From a virus (Duplodnaviria > Heunggongvirae > Uroviricota > Caudoviricetes), in the IMG/VR virus record IMGVR_UViG_2585427970_000001: DNA of 64,000 nucleotides; one strand, 5' to 3'. Below are positions 8,579-31,669 of this stretch, piece after piece (within the stretch, counting starts at the first letter, position 1; each line of letters opens with the position of its first letter). Both the position numbers and the translations under genes were made by a program. The notes under the pieces were generated by a model that was not told the DNA's origin, did not search any database, and saw nothing but the letters and a program-made list of their open reading frames with translations.

Positions 8579-8999
8579 CCTGTGCGAGATTTATTACGTA
8601 ACTTCTGCGGATTTGCTGAGTAACAGGGAAAATCCGATACAACGGGTTAATGAACGAGTCGCCATGCGTAACCATGACGTTGAAATGCCACAGTCGCTCT
8701 CCTTTACCCATATATTCAGTGGGTATGTACAACCATTCACTGTTTTCGCCCTGTTCAGCCGACGTCAAACAACGTTGTTCGCCTTCAATCACTGTCGTCG
8801 GCTTCTGAACATCGCGGATCCAATATCTGACCGTTGCGCCGCGCAAAAACGGGAATTTAGACCGGTATTTGAACGGCACCCGGATGAAACCCGGTTTAAT
8901 TTCCACATCACCAAGTTCTAAATGCGTGATGTCCTTGCGTTTTAGCAAATAGCGATCGGCTAAGGCTAACGCAAGAACGCATACACCCCAGCCAATCAT
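8556..8999 (-). CDS. Hypothetical protein with N-terminal hydrophobic segment (possible LydB-like lysis regulator)
   Basis: 147 aa ORF overlapping stop of upstream holin-like gene; assignment by position. Confidence 0.3.
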   Translation of the reverse strand: MIGWGVCVLALALADRYLLKRKDITHLELGDVEIKPGFIRVPFKYRSKFPFLRGATVRYWIRDVQKPTTVIEGEQRCLTSAEQGENSEWLYIPTEYMGKGERLWHFNVMVTHGDSFINPLYRIFPVTQQIRRSYVINLAQDVSDDEK

Positions 9000-9325
9000 T
9001 TCCCGCCTCCCTTTTTCACCAAACTTGTAAGAACATTCAGAATGCTATCGATATTCACTCGTTTCATCCCTGAAATCACCTCATGACCGTTATTGCTGGC
9101 TATCGTTACCATTAAGTACGTAATTGATAACTCCCAGCCCTCGTGTTGCCCCAATAGGTACGCCACCGCGCCAGCTGTCACTGCAACAAAGATCTCCGTA
9201 ACCAATCCCAACAAATTGCCAGACTGGCGACCGTCTCGGACATCCATCAGGAACGTGCCTATCCCACCAATTACTGAAAGCAGGAGCGCAATAGCAACTG
9301 GAGCTAATTCCTGTGTGTCAAGCAC
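8996..9325 (-). CDS. Holin-like small membrane protein (LydA-like)
   Basis: 109 aa, 2-3 predicted hydrophobic helices, charged C-terminus KKGGGK. Confidence 0.5.
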   Translation of the reverse strand: MLDTQELAPVAIALLLSVIGGIGTFLMDVRDGRQSGNLLGLVTEIFVAVTAGAVAYLLGQHEGWELSITYLMVTIASNNGHEVISGMKRVNIDSILNVLTSLVKKGGGK

Positions 9326-25590: not shown

Positions 25591-25812
25591 ATGGTTAATG
25601 CCAATCCTTGCGCACGCCAAGAATTCATCTGGCGTTTCTATTCCTGTAAAAAACACCACTATCACTTCGTCATCGCAGCAACAGAAGACGAAGCACGCTC
25701 TCAATTGCCTGATGGCCCCTGCATTTTTACTGCCCGTTTTTCAACTAACTCGCGCAATTCACTTAGTTACTGGAACCTCCCCTTCTCTGCCGACGTTCAG
25801 GGGGATTTATGA
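25591..25812 (+). CDS. icd: Icd-like small protein
   Basis: 73 aa; stop overlaps ant start in ATGA; GAGG RBS. Confidence 0.5.
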   Translation: MVNANPCARQEFIWRFYSCKKHHYHFVIAATEDEARSQLPDGPCIFTARFSTNSRNSLSYWNLPFSADVQGDL

Positions 25813-26843
25813 AAAAACCTCTCGTCACCCGTAATGAAATAGCCGAAGCGATCGCCCTGCATACAACCTGTATGCCGACACGGGAGATCCCCGGCGCAAT
25901 TGCCAACTATTTCATGATAACCAGACGTTTTTATACCCGAACAGATAAGGCTGTGATCAACAAGCTACTGATAGCCGAGATCAGGGATTATTTGATTGAA
26001 CAAGGACGTCTACGTTACGCAACAGTGGTAGCAGAAATGAGAAAGGAGGCACACAGAGTGACCGGTAAAAATTTGAATATTGAAAAACCAGCACCTGTTA
26101 CGTCAGCTACGCCAACACCAGCCGTGAATGTCATCCCCAACATCGGAGACACAATCGACAGCCAAACATTGTTGAAGATGGTCAATGAGGCACGGAAATT
26201 ATGTAGCGAAAAACCAGTTCGCAATAATGATTTCATTGCCAGAGTTAAGGATGAACTTGAAGGAGAAACCTACGAAATTTTCGTAGGTCAAAAAAACGGC
26301 GCAGAAATAGATATTATAACAATGACCTACAAACAAGCCCTGCGAGTTGCCGCCCGCGAGTCAAAAGCGGTCCGCCGTTCGCTGATCGACAAACTGGAAG
26401 AATTACAGCAGGCAAACTCCCCTACCCCATCGATCCCCCAGACATTACCAGAAGCCCTACGCCTGGCTGCCGAGTTAGCAGAACAGAAAATGCAGTTGGA
26501 ACAACAGCTGGTGGCCGCAGCCCCTAAAGTCGATTTTGCCGACCGGGTATCAGTGGCCAATGGAATCCTGATCGGGAACTTTGCAAAGGTCGTTGGACTT
26601 AAGCAAAACGCCCTTTTCTCATGGTTGCGCCAGAACGGCATTCTCATGGCTTTTGGTGCGCGCAAAAACGTACCGCGCCAACAGTACATCAACGCCGGGT
26701 ATTTCACGGTGAAAGAAGTGGTGCTGGATGATGAAAATGGCTACCAGATACGGCTGACGCCCCAATTAACGGGTAAAGGCCAGCAGTGGTTAACTCGCAA
26801 GCTACTTGATGCTGGTTTGTTAAAACCAGTAGCAATAGGTTAA
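25809..26843 (+). CDS. ant: Antirepressor Ant (C-terminal KilA-C/ANT-type domain)
   Basis: 344 aa; C-terminal block LPEALRLAAELAEQK..GNFAKVVGL..GKGQQWL shared with the KilA-like protein. Confidence 0.65.
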   Translation: MKKPLVTRNEIAEAIALHTTCMPTREIPGAIANYFMITRRFYTRTDKAVINKLLIAEIRDYLIEQGRLRYATVVAEMRKEAHRVTGKNLNIEKPAPVTSATPTPAVNVIPNIGDTIDSQTLLKMVNEARKLCSEKPVRNNDFIARVKDELEGETYEIFVGQKNGAEIDIITMTYKQALRVAARESKAVRRSLIDKLEELQQANSPTPSIPQTLPEALRLAAELAEQKMQLEQQLVAAAPKVDFADRVSVANGILIGNFAKVVGLKQNALFSWLRQNGILMAFGARKNVPRQQYINAGYFTVKEVVLDDENGYQIRLTPQLTGKGQQWLTRKLLDAGLLKPVAIG

Positions 26844-27006: not shown

Positions 27007-27807
27007 ATGCAACAAACATTCAATGCGGATATGAATATATCAAACCTTCATCAAAATGTCGATCCTTCAACCACTCTTCCCGTTATTTGTGGTGTTGAAA
27101 TTACGACCGACCGCGCTGGCCGTTACAACCTTAATGCTCTACACAGAGCGAGCGGACTCGGTGCCCATAAAGCGCCAGCTCAATGGCTAAGAACGCTGTC
27201 AGCCAAACAGCTCATCGAAGAGCTTGAAAAAGAAACTATGCAGAATTGCATAGTTTCGTTCGAAGGCCGTGGCGGCGGCACTTTTGCCCATGAATTGCTC
27301 GCAGTGGAGTACGCTGGTTGGATTTCTCCCGCGTTTCGGCTGAAGGTAAACCAGACATTTATCGACTATCGAGCTGGAAGATTACAACCTGCTATTCCGA
27401 AGAGCCTCCCAGAAGCTCTCCGTTTGGCTGCCGACCTGGCAGAGCAAAAGCAACGGCTGGAGCAAAAAATGCTGATGGATGCACCTAAAGTCGAATTCGC
27501 CGAACGCGTTGCTACCGCCAGCGGGGTTCTAATCGGCAACTATGCCAAAGTGCTCGGCTTGGGCCAAAACTATCTCTTCACCTGGTTGCGTGATAACGGA
27601 ATTCTGATCGCAACCGGTGAACGCAGGAACGTCCCCAAACAAGAATACATATCCCGTGGGTATTTCACCCTTAAAGAAACCGTGATCGATACAAGCAATG
27701 GAAGCAGGATTTCTTTCACGACTCGTATAACCGGCAAAGGTCAGCAGTGGCTGATGAAGCGATTGCTTGATGCTGGTGTGCTGGTACCTGTCGCGGCAAC
27801 GCGCTAA
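27007..27807 (+). CDS. kilA: KilA-like protein (KilA-N plus KilA-C domains)
   Basis: 266 aa; immediately upstream of repL as in P1. Confidence 0.6.
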   Translation: MQQTFNADMNISNLHQNVDPSTTLPVICGVEITTDRAGRYNLNALHRASGLGAHKAPAQWLRTLSAKQLIEELEKETMQNCIVSFEGRGGGTFAHELLAVEYAGWISPAFRLKVNQTFIDYRAGRLQPAIPKSLPEALRLAADLAEQKQRLEQKMLMDAPKVEFAERVATASGVLIGNYAKVLGLGQNYLFTWLRDNGILIATGERRNVPKQEYISRGYFTLKETVIDTSNGSRISFTTRITGKGQQWLMKRLLDAGVLVPVAATR

Positions 27808-27836
27808 CAGACGTAGTAAGAACCACCAGCATTGTA

Positions 27837-28682
27837 ATGCTGGCTAAAGTCACTTTCCTGAGCTGTATAACGATGAGCGATTTTACTTTTTCTGGCTATG
27901 AATTGGCCTGCTTTGTAACACACTCCGGTCTATCCCGTAGCGCCGGGCATATCCTGTCGCAATGTGCAAATCTCGCGGCAACAACCAGTGAATACTTCAT
28001 TCACAAGCCTCACCGCCTGATCGCGGCAGAAACTGGTTATAGTCAATCAACCGTCGTTCGTGCATTCCGTGAAGCTGTAAACAAAGGAATCCTGTCTGTA
28101 GAGATTGTTATCGGCGATCACCGTGAACGCCGTGCTAACCTGTACCGATTTACACCATCATTTTTGGCCTTCGCACAACACGCTAAAAACGCGCTGATTG
28201 AAAGCAAATTAAAGATCTCTTCAGCCGCAACCAAGGTTAAAGCTGTTCTCGCTAAGTCATTGGCTTTATTTGATTTTTTATCCACACCCCCATGTCAAAA
28301 TGATACCCCCTCCCCCTGTCAGGATGACGTGGCAATAAAGAATAAGAAGTCACAAATTAAAAAAACAAAAAGATCAGTTTCCGGCGGTGCCGGAACGACC
28401 AGCCTCAAAAAACTGACTTCATGGATCGCTGAGGCAAAAGCAAAGGCTGACAATCTGCGGTTATCCAAAAAACGCGCTCAAAAACATGAGTTCAAGCAGA
28501 AAGTAGAGGCGGCAGCGCGGAAATATGCTTACCTGAAGAACAAGCGTTCTCCTGATATTGGCGGGGTATCAAACTTCGATAATCTGCCGCATTGCATGAC
28601 GGTAAACGAAGCTCTTAATGCGGTTTTAGCCAAAAATAAAGATAACGAACAATGGGGTATACCGGCAGGATTCAGAGGGTAA
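27837..28682 (+). CDS. repL: RepL-like lytic replicon initiator
   Basis: 281 aa; downstream of kilA; size and position match P1 RepL. Confidence 0.6.
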   Translation: MLAKVTFLSCITMSDFTFSGYELACFVTHSGLSRSAGHILSQCANLAATTSEYFIHKPHRLIAAETGYSQSTVVRAFREAVNKGILSVEIVIGDHRERRANLYRFTPSFLAFAQHAKNALIESKLKISSAATKVKAVLAKSLALFDFLSTPPCQNDTPSPCQDDVAIKNKKSQIKKTKRSVSGGAGTTSLKKLTSWIAEAKAKADNLRLSKKRAQKHEFKQKVEAAARKYAYLKNKRSPDIGGVSNFDNLPHCMTVNEALNAVLAKNKDNEQWGIPAGFRG

Positions 28683-28850
28683 TGAATTGTTCTAATTATA
28701 ACCATGCATACTTTCAACGCCTCTAGTTTGCCATGAGGCAAAATCATAGGCGTCCTGGTAAGAGGGCACTGTTGCCAAAACTGGACGTCCCATTATTGCA
28801 ATTAATAAACAACTAACGGACAATTCTACCTAACAATAAGTGGAGTTAAC

Positions 28851-29555
28851 ATGTTGAACCGAAGAACATTTAATGTATTCTGCGATGAATCCTGTCACCT
28901 ACTAAATGATCATAATAAAGTCATGGTATTGGGTGCGCTTTGGTGCCCTGGCACTATCACAAAAAAAATTGCTAGAGACATCAAGGAATTAAAATTAAAA
29001 CACAATCTAAAACCTGATTTCGAAATCAAGTGGACTAAAATATCTGCGTCCAAGGTTGAATTTTACTTAGATGTCGTAGATTACTTCTTCAGCAACCCAG
29101 CATTGCGCTTTAGAGGTGTTGTTGTTCCTGATAAAGAGCAACTGGACCATGCTCGATTCCATCAAGATCATAATACTTTCTATTATAAGATGTTTTTTTA
29201 TGTCTTAAAAAACATAATAGAAAGTAACAACACATACAATATCTACCTAGATATAAAAGATACTTTAGGTATTGAAAAAATTGAGAAATTAAGAGGAGTT
29301 CTTCACAATGATCGCTATGATTACAATCATGAGTCGATAAACAGAATTCAACATATACGATCTCATGAAGTGCAACAATTGCAGCTAACGGATCTTTTCA
29401 TTGGTGCGTTAGGCTACGTTCATCGAGGAATGAATAGCAACGCGGGAAAAATCCAAGTCATAAACAGGATAAAATCACATACAAACAGGGATTTACTAAA
29501 AAGCACTCTTCCAACAGAAAGTAAATTTAATATTTTCGTGTGGGAGGCTCGCTGA
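28851..29555 (+). CDS. DUF3800-like protein (cargo gene A of AT-rich island)
   Basis: 234 aa; N-terminal FNVFCDES and C-terminal QLQLTDLFIGALGY recall DUF3800 motifs; AGTGGAG RBS; AT-rich codon usage. Confidence 0.4.
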   Translation: MLNRRTFNVFCDESCHLLNDHNKVMVLGALWCPGTITKKIARDIKELKLKHNLKPDFEIKWTKISASKVEFYLDVVDYFFSNPALRFRGVVVPDKEQLDHARFHQDHNTFYYKMFFYVLKNIIESNNTYNIYLDIKDTLGIEKIEKLRGVLHNDRYDYNHESINRIQHIRSHEVQQLQLTDLFIGALGYVHRGMNSNAGKIQVINRIKSHTNRDLLKSTLPTESKFNIFVWEAR

Positions 29556-30019
29556 TGCTTCAAATGCCAGATTTATTGTACTTAAATGGAAGTTGGCAAG
29601 AGTATATAGACGATGTATATTATGTTGTCAGAGAAGACATTTTAATCTCTAATATAACGTTTAAGGGTCTCCCTGTTCGGTTACGTTATTCACCGGAATA
29701 TGATGGGAAAGAGTTCGGATTTTGGCATTTAGTATCAGAGGGAAAAATAGAAGAAGAACGAATACCTGATCTTGAACGGTGTAAGCGGATCCGCTGGATC
29801 GCGCATATGATAAGGAATTATAACCATTCCGATATATCATGTTGGTCTGAAAGACGAGGACCAACTGAAGAATGGGTAATCTGGAACGAGTGTGAAAACT
29901 ACGTTGTTGTGCTATCCGCACGTAGAGACTATTGGCTTCTTAAAACAGCCTATGTTGTAACCTATAACAGTAAAATCAGAACACTCAAACAAAGCAGAAA
30001 AAGAGCGCTTGGGACATAA
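29555..30019 (+). CDS. Hypothetical partner protein (cargo gene B), translationally coupled to gene A
   Basis: ATG at 29555 overlaps stop of gene A (TGATG) with GGGAGG RBS 8 nt upstream; 154 aa; track ORF begins at 29540. Confidence 0.4.
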   Translation: MLQMPDLLYLNGSWQEYIDDVYYVVREDILISNITFKGLPVRLRYSPEYDGKEFGFWHLVSEGKIEEERIPDLERCKRIRWIAHMIRNYNHSDISCWSERRGPTEEWVIWNECENYVVVLSARRDYWLLKTAYVVTYNSKIRTLKQSRKRALGT

Positions 30020-30027
30020 AAAAGCTG

Positions 30028-30057
30028 AACCCGACACATATTGCTATGTATCGGGTT
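30028..30057 (+). terminator. Stem-loop after cargo operon
   Basis: aacccgacacata-ttgc-tatgtatcgggtt (one mismatch). Confidence 0.35.
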
Positions 30058-30185
30058 CGATCGCTCTTTCTACACATGGTAGATGAGTAAGGCAAATTTA
30101 ACCGATCTACTTTAGCTTTTCAATAGCTAGCTATAACTTTCCGCACATATTCTTCTGATAATTCCAGTATGGCTGTTGGGTTTTC

Positions 30186-30482
30186 TTATGCTTTTCTGCG
30201 CAGAGGTGCACATTTATTCAGCAATAATAAATGTAATTCTTTGTTATTCCTAAGTATTTCGACACACCAATATCGTAACGTGTTCACTTCAAGTGTAGCC
30301 AGCACCTTATGTCGAAGTCCTCCCTCCCCTGCACATAACGATGACCGACATTCTGCTAAGGCACATAACCATGTATTGGCGTCATAGAGAATCCAATAAT
30401 GCTCCTCTGAAATAGTTTTGCATCCAATTATTTCGAATCTTCGTTCTATCGTTTCAGGAGAGTATGAAAAATCAATTTCCAT
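30186..30482 (-). CDS. Hypothetical small Cys-containing protein (cargo gene C; may be non-coding)
   Basis: 98 aa AT-rich ORF between two terminators; no clear RBS. Confidence 0.2.
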   Translation of the reverse strand: MEIDFSYSPETIERRFEIIGCKTISEEHYWILYDANTWLCALAECRSSLCAGEGGLRHKVLATLEVNTLRYWCVEILRNNKELHLLLLNKCAPLRRKA

Positions 30483-30523
30483 AATATGCTCAAAATTTCG
30501 CTATACCAGCATAATTTAAGCAC

Positions 30524-30544
30524 AAAAAAAGCTCCCGCAGGAGC
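30524..30544 (-). terminator. Rho-independent terminator for minus-strand structural operon
   Basis: gctcc-cgca-ggagc stem with A7 on plus strand (T7 on minus). Confidence 0.5.
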
Positions 30545-30566
30545 TTTAAAATACAAGGGATGACTC

Positions 30567-31076
30567 TTAATCCCACTCAATCCAGTTGTAAACGATACGA
30601 AGTGACGGGCGCACAGCGGCAGTCACATCTTCGGTACTAAAGTCGATTGCATCACTGTAGATTTTGCAGTCCAACATTTCAATTGTTGTAGCAGCTTTTG
30701 TCACAGCGTTAACCCCGGAAGATTTGGATTCAGGGGTCGCAGCCATCGTGATATCAACATAGTCCTTCGCCGCAATGCGATCTTTAATGAACTGAAGAAT
30801 ATCGCCTTCGATAGTCTCCACGCACTGGACCTGGATTTCCCCGGAGTTACGGATTGGACCGTGCTGGTTGAACTTCACACCATTCGGACCATAGTCCTCC
30901 ACATCCTCGCGGGTCATTTCAGGAATTTGCGACGTGCGAACCAGTACGCTGATATCTTCATGGCCTGCAAAAGTGAGCTGGAATTCAGAAGATACCAGTC
31001 GTTCGCCTTTGGCCGCGTTGGCAGTATAGCGGCCCTTAATAAATTTACGGTTTCCCTTAGTGTTATTGTGCCCCAT
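30567..31076 (-). CDS. Phage structural/morphogenesis protein
   Basis: 169 aa, first of three collinear genes ahead of sheath. Confidence 0.35.
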   Translation of the reverse strand: MGHNNTKGNRKFIKGRYTANAAKGERLVSSEFQLTFAGHEDISVLVRTSQIPEMTREDVEDYGPNGVKFNQHGPIRNSGEIQVQCVETIEGDILQFIKDRIAAKDYVDITMAATPESKSSGVNAVTKAATTIEMLDCKIYSDAIDFSTEDVTAAVRPSLRIVYNWIEWD

Positions 31077-31087
31077 ATAAAATCCTT

Positions 31088-31669
31088 TTACTGGAACGCC
31101 CGAACAATATCGGAGCTGTTATATATCGAAGAACCGGTCAACTGGAGGTTGACGGTGTTTTTCAGGAAATGCCCATTGCTGTCCCTGGGCGCATCGAGAT
31201 CGAAACTTATGTCCTGGATAGCGACATCAATGATGTTGATCCGGCGACCAATGTTTAGCGTCACACGCTCCGGGATTCGACCACCAATACTGGCATCTTT
31301 AAGTTCCGGGCTAATCATCGCTGACAATGCGGCGATAGCTCCTGAAACCTCCGTGAATGGGTCAAACAAAGCGATGAAAGTTACTGGCAGCGTGAAAGTC
31401 GGCGGTGTTCCCCCTTCCCAAACCATTAAGCTGTTCCAACGGGCAACCGACGTTGTTTCAGTACCAACCTGCGCAAAACCACTGAAGGCACCAGCAACAG
31501 ATCCCATGGACATACCGGTAAACGGCGCTTCCCAATTCTGGGCCATGTTCATTGCCGCTCCCTGGCTGATATATCCGGTAACCTGGTACTGAGAGTTCGT
31601 TAAAGTAACTTTCAGATATGGCGATACACCGTCAGCCTGGCTGTAAACCCCATAAGGTATAGGTGCCAT
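31088..31669 (-). CDS. Phage structural/morphogenesis protein
   Basis: 193 aa. Confidence 0.3.
   Translation of the reverse strand: MAPIPYGVYSQADGVSPYLKVTLTNSQYQVTGYISQGAAMNMAQNWEAPFTGMSMGSVAGAFSGFAQVGTETTSVARWNSLMVWEGGTPPTFTLPVTFIALFDPFTEVSGAIAALSAMISPELKDASIGGRIPERVTLNIGRRINIIDVAIQDISFDLDAPRDSNGHFLKNTVNLQLTGSSIYNSSDIVRAFQ

Follow-up and report, generated by a model that had tools for sequence, protein, structure and literature searches.

A candidate defence gene pair, rlfA-rlfB, in the variable cassette between repL and bplB of a P1-like phage-plasmid

Introduction

What does an AT-rich cassette of three genes do between the lytic replicon and the baseplate operon of a phage-plasmid? We addressed this question in a stretch of 64,000 nucleotides of viral DNA (Caudoviricetes; IMG/VR record IMGVR_UViG_2585427970_000001), the whole of which is called the window below. 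We found the cassette to be rlfA-rlfB-pmgF of a P1-like phage-plasmid, flanked by the lytic replicon gene repL and by bplB of the baseplate operon. A preceding interpretation of the bare sequence, made with no database searches (the sequence-only reading), had singled out its two plus-strand genes as a candidate accessory or defence module. The gene names rlf and pmg stand for 'replication-linked function' and 'putative morphogenetic function' and were given by position only; in the 2004 P1 annotation, the function of rlfA and rlfB was reportedly guessed from position alone.

The P1 cassette, the RefSeq DUF3800 label on its first protein and the status of the pair as a PADLOC candidate are already known, and the finding itself is a re-identification of known genes. 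Several points are apparently unstated in the searchable literature, namely that rlfAB of P1 is the defence candidate PDC-M04, the exact borders of the cassette and its occupancy of about 20%, the structural assignment that we propose for RlfA, the near-absolute pairing of RlfA with RlfB over about 158 loci, and the position of RlfB outside any family.

Results

Identity of the cassette and of the rlfA-rlfB pair

The region of the window corresponds to positions 51589-53447 of P1 at 96% nucleotide identity, where rlfA, rlfB and pmgF are annotated in the P1 record. Over their full lengths, the products are 99.1% (RlfA), 96.8% (RlfB) and 91.8% (PmgF) identical to those of P1. The gene order repL, rlfA, rlfB, pmgF, bplB is the same in the window and in P1, as are the orientation and the flanks, and the window copy differs from the P1 cassette by allelic changes only. 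The sequence-only reading had cautioned that the two plus-strand genes could be homologs of P1 rlfA and rlfB, and the full-length alignments turn this caution into their actual identity. The window copy has its closest relatives (99.7%) in one subgroup of the P1-like plasmids of E. coli, which includes NZ_CP027590 and NZ_AP018798.

When the two proteins were compared with the PADLOC models, RlfA matched PDC-M04A (PDLC04353) with an E-value of 2.2e-95 over positions 3-228 of 232, and RlfB matched PDC-M04B (PDLC04357) with an E-value of 5.1e-51 over positions 6-155 of 162, together with 11 further B models. The A and B genes are adjacent on the same strand in the window. The PDC class consists of 145 'guilt by embedding' candidates collected from BREX, DISARM and type I restriction-modification (R-M) operons (Payne et al., bioRxiv 10.1101/2024.01.29.577857).

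The organization of the genes is that of a tightly coupled operon. The stop codon of rlfA (29553-29555) overlaps the ATG of rlfB (29555-29557) in the sequence TGATG, and the homologues of rlfB share an M-L-x-M-P start. Ahead of rlfA, GTGGAG at 28838-28843 forms a Shine-Dalgarno-like site. The two coupled open reading frames (ORFs), the GGGAGG ribosome-binding site of rlfB and a third AT-rich ORF on the opposite strand had all been read from the bare sequence, and each is present at the position listed in Table 1.

The base composition of the region departs clearly from its surroundings. The G+C content is 0.33-0.40 over positions 28800-30600 compared with approximately 0.45-0.54 in the flanks, and that of the cassette as a whole is 0.374 compared with 0.476 for the entire window. 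The G+C content at third codon positions is likewise lower in rlfA, rlfB and pmgF (0.32-0.34) than in repL (0.44) and bplB (0.53). The foreign composition proposed earlier is thus borne out by calculation.

RlfA is a DUF3800 protein with a predicted RNase H2-type fold

RlfA matches the Pfam family PF12686 (DUF3800) with an E-value of 7e-14 and 53.2 bits against a gathering cutoff of 21, covering positions 1-148 of the 149 in the profile, and DUF3800 is the only Pfam family that it matches. The sequence-only reading had proposed a DUF3800-like protein from an N-terminal block, FNVFCDES, and a C-terminal block; in the RlfA translation these blocks read TFNVFCDESCH and QQLQLTDLFIGALGY, and the profile match agrees with that proposal. 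Among 31 RlfA homologues, which reach down to 52% identity and whose named sources are Proteobacteria and Bacteroidota, 43 positions are invariant, including D12, E13, S14, C15, H16, D134, K136, D137, Q167 and D181, and Q178 is nearly so. RlfA contains both signature motifs described for DUF3800 (PMC7736814), the N-terminal DE (D12 and E13) and the C-terminal QxxD (Q178 and D181).

A structural model of RlfA, which was built on the alignment of homologues, reached a pLDDT of 88.7 and a pTM of 0.88. The fold of this predicted model is of the RNase H2 type. D12 and E13 are placed at the end of the first strand, D134 follows directly on the strand 127-133, and D181 is located in the helix 175-191, so that the four invariant carboxylates occupy, in the model, the secondary-structure positions expected for an RNase H-type site, namely the ends of strand 1 and of an inner strand and a C-terminal helix. 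The search of the PDB by sequence with the RlfA family profile returned noise only, and no chain was matched. Since an RNase H2-type fold is combined with a complete set of conserved carboxylates, RlfA most likely acts on nucleic acid as a metal-dependent nuclease, which is very probably active to judge from the model. The predicted fold suggests RNA:DNA hybrids or ribonucleotide-containing DNA as its substrates.

Rfam contains RNA motifs that are associated with DUF3800. In the window region 27500-31500, no DUF3800-associated RNA motif was detected at E <= 1, the only match being a sub-threshold one to STnc130, and the same search of eight related loci gave nothing relevant. Based on these negative results, no companion RNA is evident.

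RlfB is a fast-diverging partner outside the described families

By sequence, RlfB has no match in Pfam, NCBIfam or the PDB, and its family profile finds none in the PDB, which accords with the earlier failure to recognise a family for the 154-residue partner. In a Pfam scan of 42 diverse members of the RlfB family, only scattered single matches with E > 0.008 were obtained, with no link to a toxin family. The family nevertheless is large and uniform: at a cutoff of E <= 0.001 it comprises 1,775 representative clusters, of which almost all are stand-alone proteins of 150-190 residues, and its near-invariant residues are K52, F56, H58, R69, P71, R75, C76, R78, W81 and W97. The predicted model of RlfB (pLDDT 89.4) begins with a long N-terminal helix, which is followed by further helices and an antiparallel sheet of four strands, and it ends with a basic helix. 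Its best structural neighbours are toxin RNases of toxin-antitoxin (TA) and colicin/contact-dependent inhibition (CDI) systems (RelE/ParE, colicin D and CdiA), although the Foldseek comparison with the PDB is not significant.

RlfB diverges faster than RlfA. The median identity of the homologues to the window protein is 36.7% for RlfB and 51.8% for RlfA, and the RlfB value is the lower one in 79 of 79 pairs. A fast-changing RlfB beside a conserved RlfA suits a recognition or regulatory subunit accompanying a catalytic one. Public records variously name RlfB 'replication protein', 'oxidoreductase' or 'hypothetical protein'. The first two names are supported by neither a profile nor a structural result and look like propagated annotation errors, and the 'replication protein' label in PHROG and RefSeq traces to the P1 note only.

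The structural neighbours of RlfB raise the question of whether the pair could be an addiction or TA-type module devoid of an immune role, in which one protein is a growth-arresting nuclease, the other restrains it, and the pair stabilises its carrier, be it the P1 plasmid, a prophage or an R-M operon. Such a module would explain the compact two-gene operon with its overlapping stop and start codons and its conservation as a unit, as well as the mobility of the pair and its scatter over phyla, and the type I toxin gene hokD fills the same slot in other plasmids. However, RlfA is large, extremely conserved and equipped with an intact active-site signature, unlike typical labile antitoxins, and the Pfam search found no DNA-binding antitoxin domain. 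The resemblance of RlfB to toxin folds falls short of significance, as stated above, and P1 already has phd-doc, which is among the conserved genes in PMC9603915. We regard an addiction module as unlikely, though worth keeping in view; TA and defence functions are not exclusive, and this explanation overlaps with the best one.

The pair travels as a unit across bacteria and temperate phages

RlfA relatives were found in at least 565 species genomes in a survey that used one genome per species, and gene neighbourhoods were examined at the 80 best of these loci. These 80 relatives, all with approximately 50-74% identity, represent at least a dozen phyla. At 79 of the 80 loci, the ORF that immediately follows in the same orientation belongs to the RlfB family, and this is also so in all 78 viral contigs that leave room for it. 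The stop/start overlap of the two genes was seen in every context read. The sole locus that has no RlfB-family ORF, in a metagenome-assembled genome of Sulfurimonas sp. NORP9, is flanked by type I R-M genes; it is possibly a natural case of RlfA alone, or its partner may be too divergent to detect. At 8699-9154 in Methylomonas sp. 11b, the gene caller gives a product of 57 amino acids, and tblastn gives a full-length RlfB homologue (150 amino acids, 53%) at 8705-9154, so the partner gene there may have been miscalled or interrupted.

A recurrent context of the pair is the type I R-M operon. We searched for hsd genes within 8 kb with two type I R-M systems as the only queries, and a type I R-M gene was found in 35 of the 80 genome loci. 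In 14 of the 80, the pair is strictly co-oriented in the order hsdM/S, pair, hsdR, and 20 further loci, often on truncated contigs, have hsd genes on one side only. The window itself lacks such nesting, its pair being flanked by repL and bplB.

Three individual loci illustrate the restriction context. In Methylomonas the pair is inserted between hsdS and hsdR. In an integrative element of Algoriphagus pacificus (JAFKCU010000003.1, 4183-15617), a fused hsdM/S gene, a reverse transcriptase of 502 amino acids, the pair, hsdR, an ORF of 325 amino acids and a Piwi-domain protein of 686 amino acids (pAgo) follow one another; two cargoes, the reverse transcriptase and RlfAB, are thus nested in one type I R-M operon. 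An Oleiphilus-type contig (9020-20708) carries hsdR-M-S, a 5'-nucleotidase-family gene, the pair, a NucS_C-like gene, a helicase of 2001 amino acids with DUF4011/AAA_11/AAA_12/MTES_1575 domains, and an ABC/DUF4435 protein, and it is a putative dense defence island.

Outside restriction operons, the pair is found next to integrases in prophages (Enterobacter, Bifidobacterium-type and others, among them one of high G+C from the gut), in a conjugative element of the E. coli guaA island and in an island of Burkholderia; the RlfA of Bifidobacterium phage Bbif-1 is 44% identical. It also occurs in a lambdoid prophage of Serratia, within the nin region, and, in Biostraticola, as an isolated two-gene insertion beside mnmE.

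These contexts bear on a further explanation, according to which the pair would serve counter-defence or host takeover during lytic growth, for example by destroying the RNA:DNA hybrids of retron multicopy single-stranded DNA (msDNA) or host nucleic acids. Its location in a phage accessory slot, the C1 operator and the early-phase expression described below would all fit, and elsewhere DUF3800 has been tied to non-coding RNAs and to the RNA-DNA molecules of retrons (PMC7736814, PMC5737381). However, the pair is frequent in chromosomes, where it lies inside host restriction operons and is co-oriented with them, which is unexpected for an anti-defence function, and the DUF3800-associated motifs of Rfam were not found in the window or in the eight related loci. 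We consider a counter-defence role very unlikely.

The repL-bplB slot holds exchangeable cargo

To determine the borders of the cassette, we aligned the window, P1 and three P1-like plasmids in which other genes occupy the interval from repL to bplB. On the left, homology stops just past the operator core ATTG(C/T)TCTAAT, at approximately 28700, that is inside or just after the operator Orlf. On the right, homology resumes at approximately 30525, at the A-run before the bplB terminator. In the other plasmids, the interval contains a ParA-family gene, a DUF3892 gene and an ORF of 198 amino acids (NZ_CP101271.1, 9186-11484), hokD and an ORF of 81 amino acids (NZ_CP099329.1, 66661-67243), or hokD and IS421 (NZ_CP081699.1, 11473-12818). 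The earlier suggestion that the slot downstream of repL is variable is therefore well founded. The three-gene ParA set is uncharacterised. The PADLOC scan of the alternative cargo (ParA, DUF3892, the 198- and 81-amino acid ORFs and HokD) gave no match and so provides no ground for regarding the slot as a defence hotspot. Previous comparisons have listed rlfA-rlfB-pmgF as variable region 5, one of eight variable low-G+C regions in P1-like phage-plasmids (PMC9603915), and reported that the region is replaced in pSvP1 and pTZ20_1P (PMC6906374).

The occupancy of the slot was counted among PLSDB records and among complete genomes of E. coli. In PLSDB, matches to repL, bplB-pmgG and the cassette were found in 516, 710 and 113 records, respectively. 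With tblastn, RlfA was detected at 95% identity or more in 101 records and below 60% in 6, and none fell in between. Hidden divergent rlfAB alleles in other P1-like plasmids were considered and are excluded by this lack of intermediate-identity records. The cassette is thus present in about 20% of P1-like plasmids (about 101-113 of 516 carrying repL), and in 121 of 5,426 complete E. coli genomes, nearly always on plasmids. The sequence-only reading had named full-length alignment to P1 RlfA and RlfB, together with universal presence in P1-like genomes, as speaking against an accessory module. The alignment does extend over the full length, and the presence is far from universal.

The genes that are carried are maintained. 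Compared with P1, the ratios of nonsynonymous to synonymous substitution rates (dN/dS) are 0.05 for rlfA, 0.08 for rlfB and 0.23 for pmgF, indicating purifying selection; a pseudogene or decaying relic is excluded by the values for rlfA and rlfB. In a CRISPR interference (CRISPRi) screen of P1, the efficiency of plating (EOP) was 1.3, 0.88 and 1.2 upon knockdown of rlfA, rlfB and pmgF, respectively, and the genes were called non-essential (PMC10695390). The cassette genes are dispensable for P1 plaque formation. Taken together, horizontally acquired, swappable and non-essential cargo is the best explanation of the cassette.

PmgF is restricted to P1-like elements

The third gene lies outside the conserved pair. 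PmgF matches only PHROGs of unknown function, phrog_7349 with an E-value of 1e-41, and in NCBIfam it has no match, like the other two cassette proteins. Only two PmgF clusters, 88% and 96% identical, were recovered from a search of 5.8 billion proteins, with E. coli as the one named source. PmgF was considered as a third component of the system and rejected, being absent beside the pair in all loci other than those of P1 and restricted to P1-like elements. Over residues 3-66, it shares 42% identity with the N-terminal part of the 198-amino acid ORF that occupies the same position in the ParA/DUF3892 cassette. Nothing supports a morphogenetic role of PmgF, and its CRISPRi knockdown had no effect.

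Regulation and expression of the cassette

The features of the cassette and its flanks are summarised in Table 1. The P1 record gives ATTGCTCTAATTATAAC as the monovalent C1-controlled operator Orlf, named Op(rap) in P7, and the window operator differs from that of P1 and P7 at one base, a C-to-T change at position 5 (ATTGTTCTAATTATAAC vs ATTGCTCTAATTATAAC). The Orlf core is retained in P1-like plasmids with wholly different cargo in the slot, which indicates that the operator belongs to the repL side of the junction. The promoter PrlfA is a weak match to the sigma-70 consensus (8 of 12 positions) and lies under the threshold of our scan. The terminator scan detected no plus-strand terminator between repL and rlfA, so that read-through from the kilA-repL operon may be possible.

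Table 1. Features of the rlfA-rlfB-pmgF cassette and its borders in the window.
Feature	Position	Strand	Description	Basis
Exchangeable cassette, whole	28700..30524		approximately 1.8 kb, G+C 0.374, all three genes	alignment borders and composition
rlfA (rapA in the P7 record)	28851..29555	+	234-aa DUF3800 protein, predicted RNase H2-like fold, PADLOC PDC-M04A	
rlfB (rapB in the P7 record)	29555..30019	+	154-aa partner, no described family, PADLOC PDC-M04B	
pmgF (upf52.1 in the P7 record)	30186..30482	-	98-aa ORF, third gene of the cassette, outside the conserved pair	
Ribosome-binding site of rlfB, GGGAGG	29543-29548	+	within the 3' end of rlfA, six bases before the ATG	read from the sequence
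C1 repressor operator Orlf (formerly Op55), ATTGTTCTAATTATAAC	28686..28702	+	directly after the repL stop	P1 annotation
Predicted sigma-70 promoter PrlfA	28796..28824	+	TTGCAA, 17 bases, GACAAT	transferred from P1 annotation
Stem-loop between convergent rlfB and pmgF	30027..30058		14-bp stem; pmgF terminator on the - strand, weak at best for rlfB	
bplB intrinsic terminator (late operon)	30528..30547	-	stem then TTTTTTT; backbone, marks the right border of the cassette	
repL	27837-28682		upstream of the cassette	
bplB	30567-31076	-	downstream of the cassette, baseplate operon / late operon	

The sequence-only reading had described the operon as bracketed by hairpins. Both hairpins are real and beat shuffled sequences; both scan as minus-strand terminators, however, and the second belongs to the backbone and lies outside the cassette. 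The hairpin at 30027-30058 has a folding energy of -28.5 kcal/mol on the minus strand (z -8.0) and -19.8 kcal/mol on the plus strand (z -5.3), in each case beyond all shuffles. A T-run follows it on the minus strand, and that on the plus strand is poor. Since it scans as a minus-strand terminator with a T-run, it would mainly end the pmgF transcript. The hairpin at 30528-30547 has -15.5 kcal/mol on the minus strand (z -4.6) and -11.0 kcal/mol on the plus strand. The match to STnc130 mentioned above comes from the terminator hairpin of bplB (30520-30547), involves the 3' end of that Rfam family and stays below threshold (28 bits against a gathering cutoff of 55, E 0.28); it is almost certainly mere terminator resemblance.

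In a time course of P1vir infection, rlfA and rlfB were grouped with the replication genes: at 10 min, both rlfB and repL were named as early lytic replication factors, and at 20 min, rlfA/B shifted together with repL (10.64898/2025.12.28.696737). These results bear on the possibility suggested by the name of the genes, namely that the pair is an accessory of P1 lytic replication, in which RlfA, aided by RlfB as a cofactor, would process R-loops or RNA primers at oriL as an RNase H. The predicted RNase H2-like fold of RlfA, the grouping with repL in the time course, and the location of the cassette directly downstream of repL and oriL with no terminator between them are consistent with such a role, and the C1 operator suggests co-regulation with early lytic genes. 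However, about 80% of the plasmids that carry a 97-98% identical repL lack the cassette, and plaque formation is unreduced upon knockdown (EOP of about 1). In addition, the same pair resides in type I R-M operons and in integrase-adjacent slots of elements that have no repL, and its foreign composition and sharp borders argue for cargo. A replication accessory appears to us a highly improbable description of the pair.

Upstream of repL, an Ant1-like ORF (25809-26843, plus strand, 344 amino acids) and KilA (27007-27807, plus strand, 266 amino acids) share a homologous C-terminal half of about 120 residues, with the common stretch ...LPEALRLAA-LAEQK...GKGQQWL...LLDAG-L-PVA in their translations. 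This common half is the KilA-C/antirepressor domain, which occurs twice in tandem operons.

Discussion

A defence function of rlfAB and the evidence for and against it

What, then, does the pair do for its carrier? We judge a role of rlfAB in defence or in conflict between elements to be evenly balanced against all other roles, and any one specific mechanism to be much less probable than that. The core of the cassette is a mobile two-gene unit distributed across bacteria and temperate phages. RlfB, a small basic protein made by translational coupling, would most likely form a complex with RlfA and supply recognition or regulation; less likely, it could provide a second RNase activity resembling RelE or colicin D. 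The pair may shield its carrier, be it the host or P1 itself, from other phages or plasmids. When an invader is sensed, replication intermediates or cellular RNA would be cut, by a logic comparable to that of other modules nested in type I restriction operons. Complex formation, the substrate, the trigger, the defence phenotype and the timing of expression in P1 are parts of this proposal that we infer.

A bolder form of the proposal can be imagined, in which RlfA-RlfB is a mechanistically new two-protein immune module. Here the RNase H2-like enzyme would sense RNA:DNA hybrids of the invader or failed type I restriction and, with RlfB as a cryptic RelE/colicin-D-like RNase or a specificity subunit, would destroy intermediates or arrest the cell, and P1 would have captured the module under C1 control to exclude rivals while it replicates. 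As a whole, this scenario is decidedly unlikely.

We need to consider several points that weigh against a defence role. First, the PDC systems are stated to be untested by their own authors (bioRxiv 10.1101/2024.01.29.577857) and were excluded as unvalidated by another group (10.1101/2025.01.08.631726), and the searchable literature yields no functional test of PDC-M04 or of a DUF3800 pair. Second, guilt by embedding can also catch accessory functions of R-M systems or functions of mobile elements, and no type I R-M gene was found with the two-system queries in 45 of the 80 genome loci. Third, no phenotype of P1 lysogens has been attributed to rlfA or rlfB, and the nuclease activity of RlfA and its substrate are predicted only. 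Finally, the C1 operator, the absence of a terminator after repL, the weak PrlfA and the grouping of the transcripts suggest that the genes are expressed along with the early lytic genes and not in the lysogen. Since silence in the lysogen is unusual for prophage-borne defence, the addiction, replication and counter-defence explanations all stay alive.

The evidence points away from the replication and morphogenesis labels that the cassette genes carry. P1 is a tractable model with CRISPRi and deletion toolkits, and it offers a convenient testbed for the candidate family and for a DUF3800 enzyme.

Comparison with known systems

The RlfA model has in common with type 2 RNases H (RNase HII and RNASEH2A) the RNase H2-type fold, at a sequence identity of 6-13% and with neither a Pfam RNase HII match nor a PDB match by sequence. 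It differs from them in its DESCH motif and its extra helices. RlfA shares its Pfam domain with the DUF3800 proteins encoded by type VII retrons and at Cas12a2-linked loci, for which an RNase H-like fold has been predicted (PMC7736814, PMC10910872). The type VII retron clade lacks the Q of QxxD, whereas RlfA retains it. Compared with the retron and Cas12a2-linked proteins, RlfA is devoid of a fused reverse transcriptase, a TPR domain or an Rfam RNA motif, and it has RlfB as a constant partner instead.

With respect to PDC-M04, the present genome survey independently reproduced the nesting inside type I R-M operons on which the candidate class was founded. The P1 pair differs in that it lies outside any R-M system, alone in a cargo slot of a phage-plasmid under a C1 operator.

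The latent nucleases PrrC and RloC provide the closest analogy in position. The PrrC anticodon nuclease reportedly sits between hsdS and hsdR in the prr locus, as described by Kaufmann and colleagues, and the co-oriented arrangement between these genes is common to the pair in the 14 loci of the survey. A further likeness may lie in the possible RNase-toxin-like fold on the RlfB side, for which the Foldseek comparison is not significant. On the contrary, RlfAB has no sequence or domain similarity to PrrC and RloC, contains no ABC ATPase, consists of two proteins rather than one, and also occurs apart from R-M systems, as in P1. By analogy with these nucleases, the logic of a 'second line behind restriction' is an attractive one for the pair.

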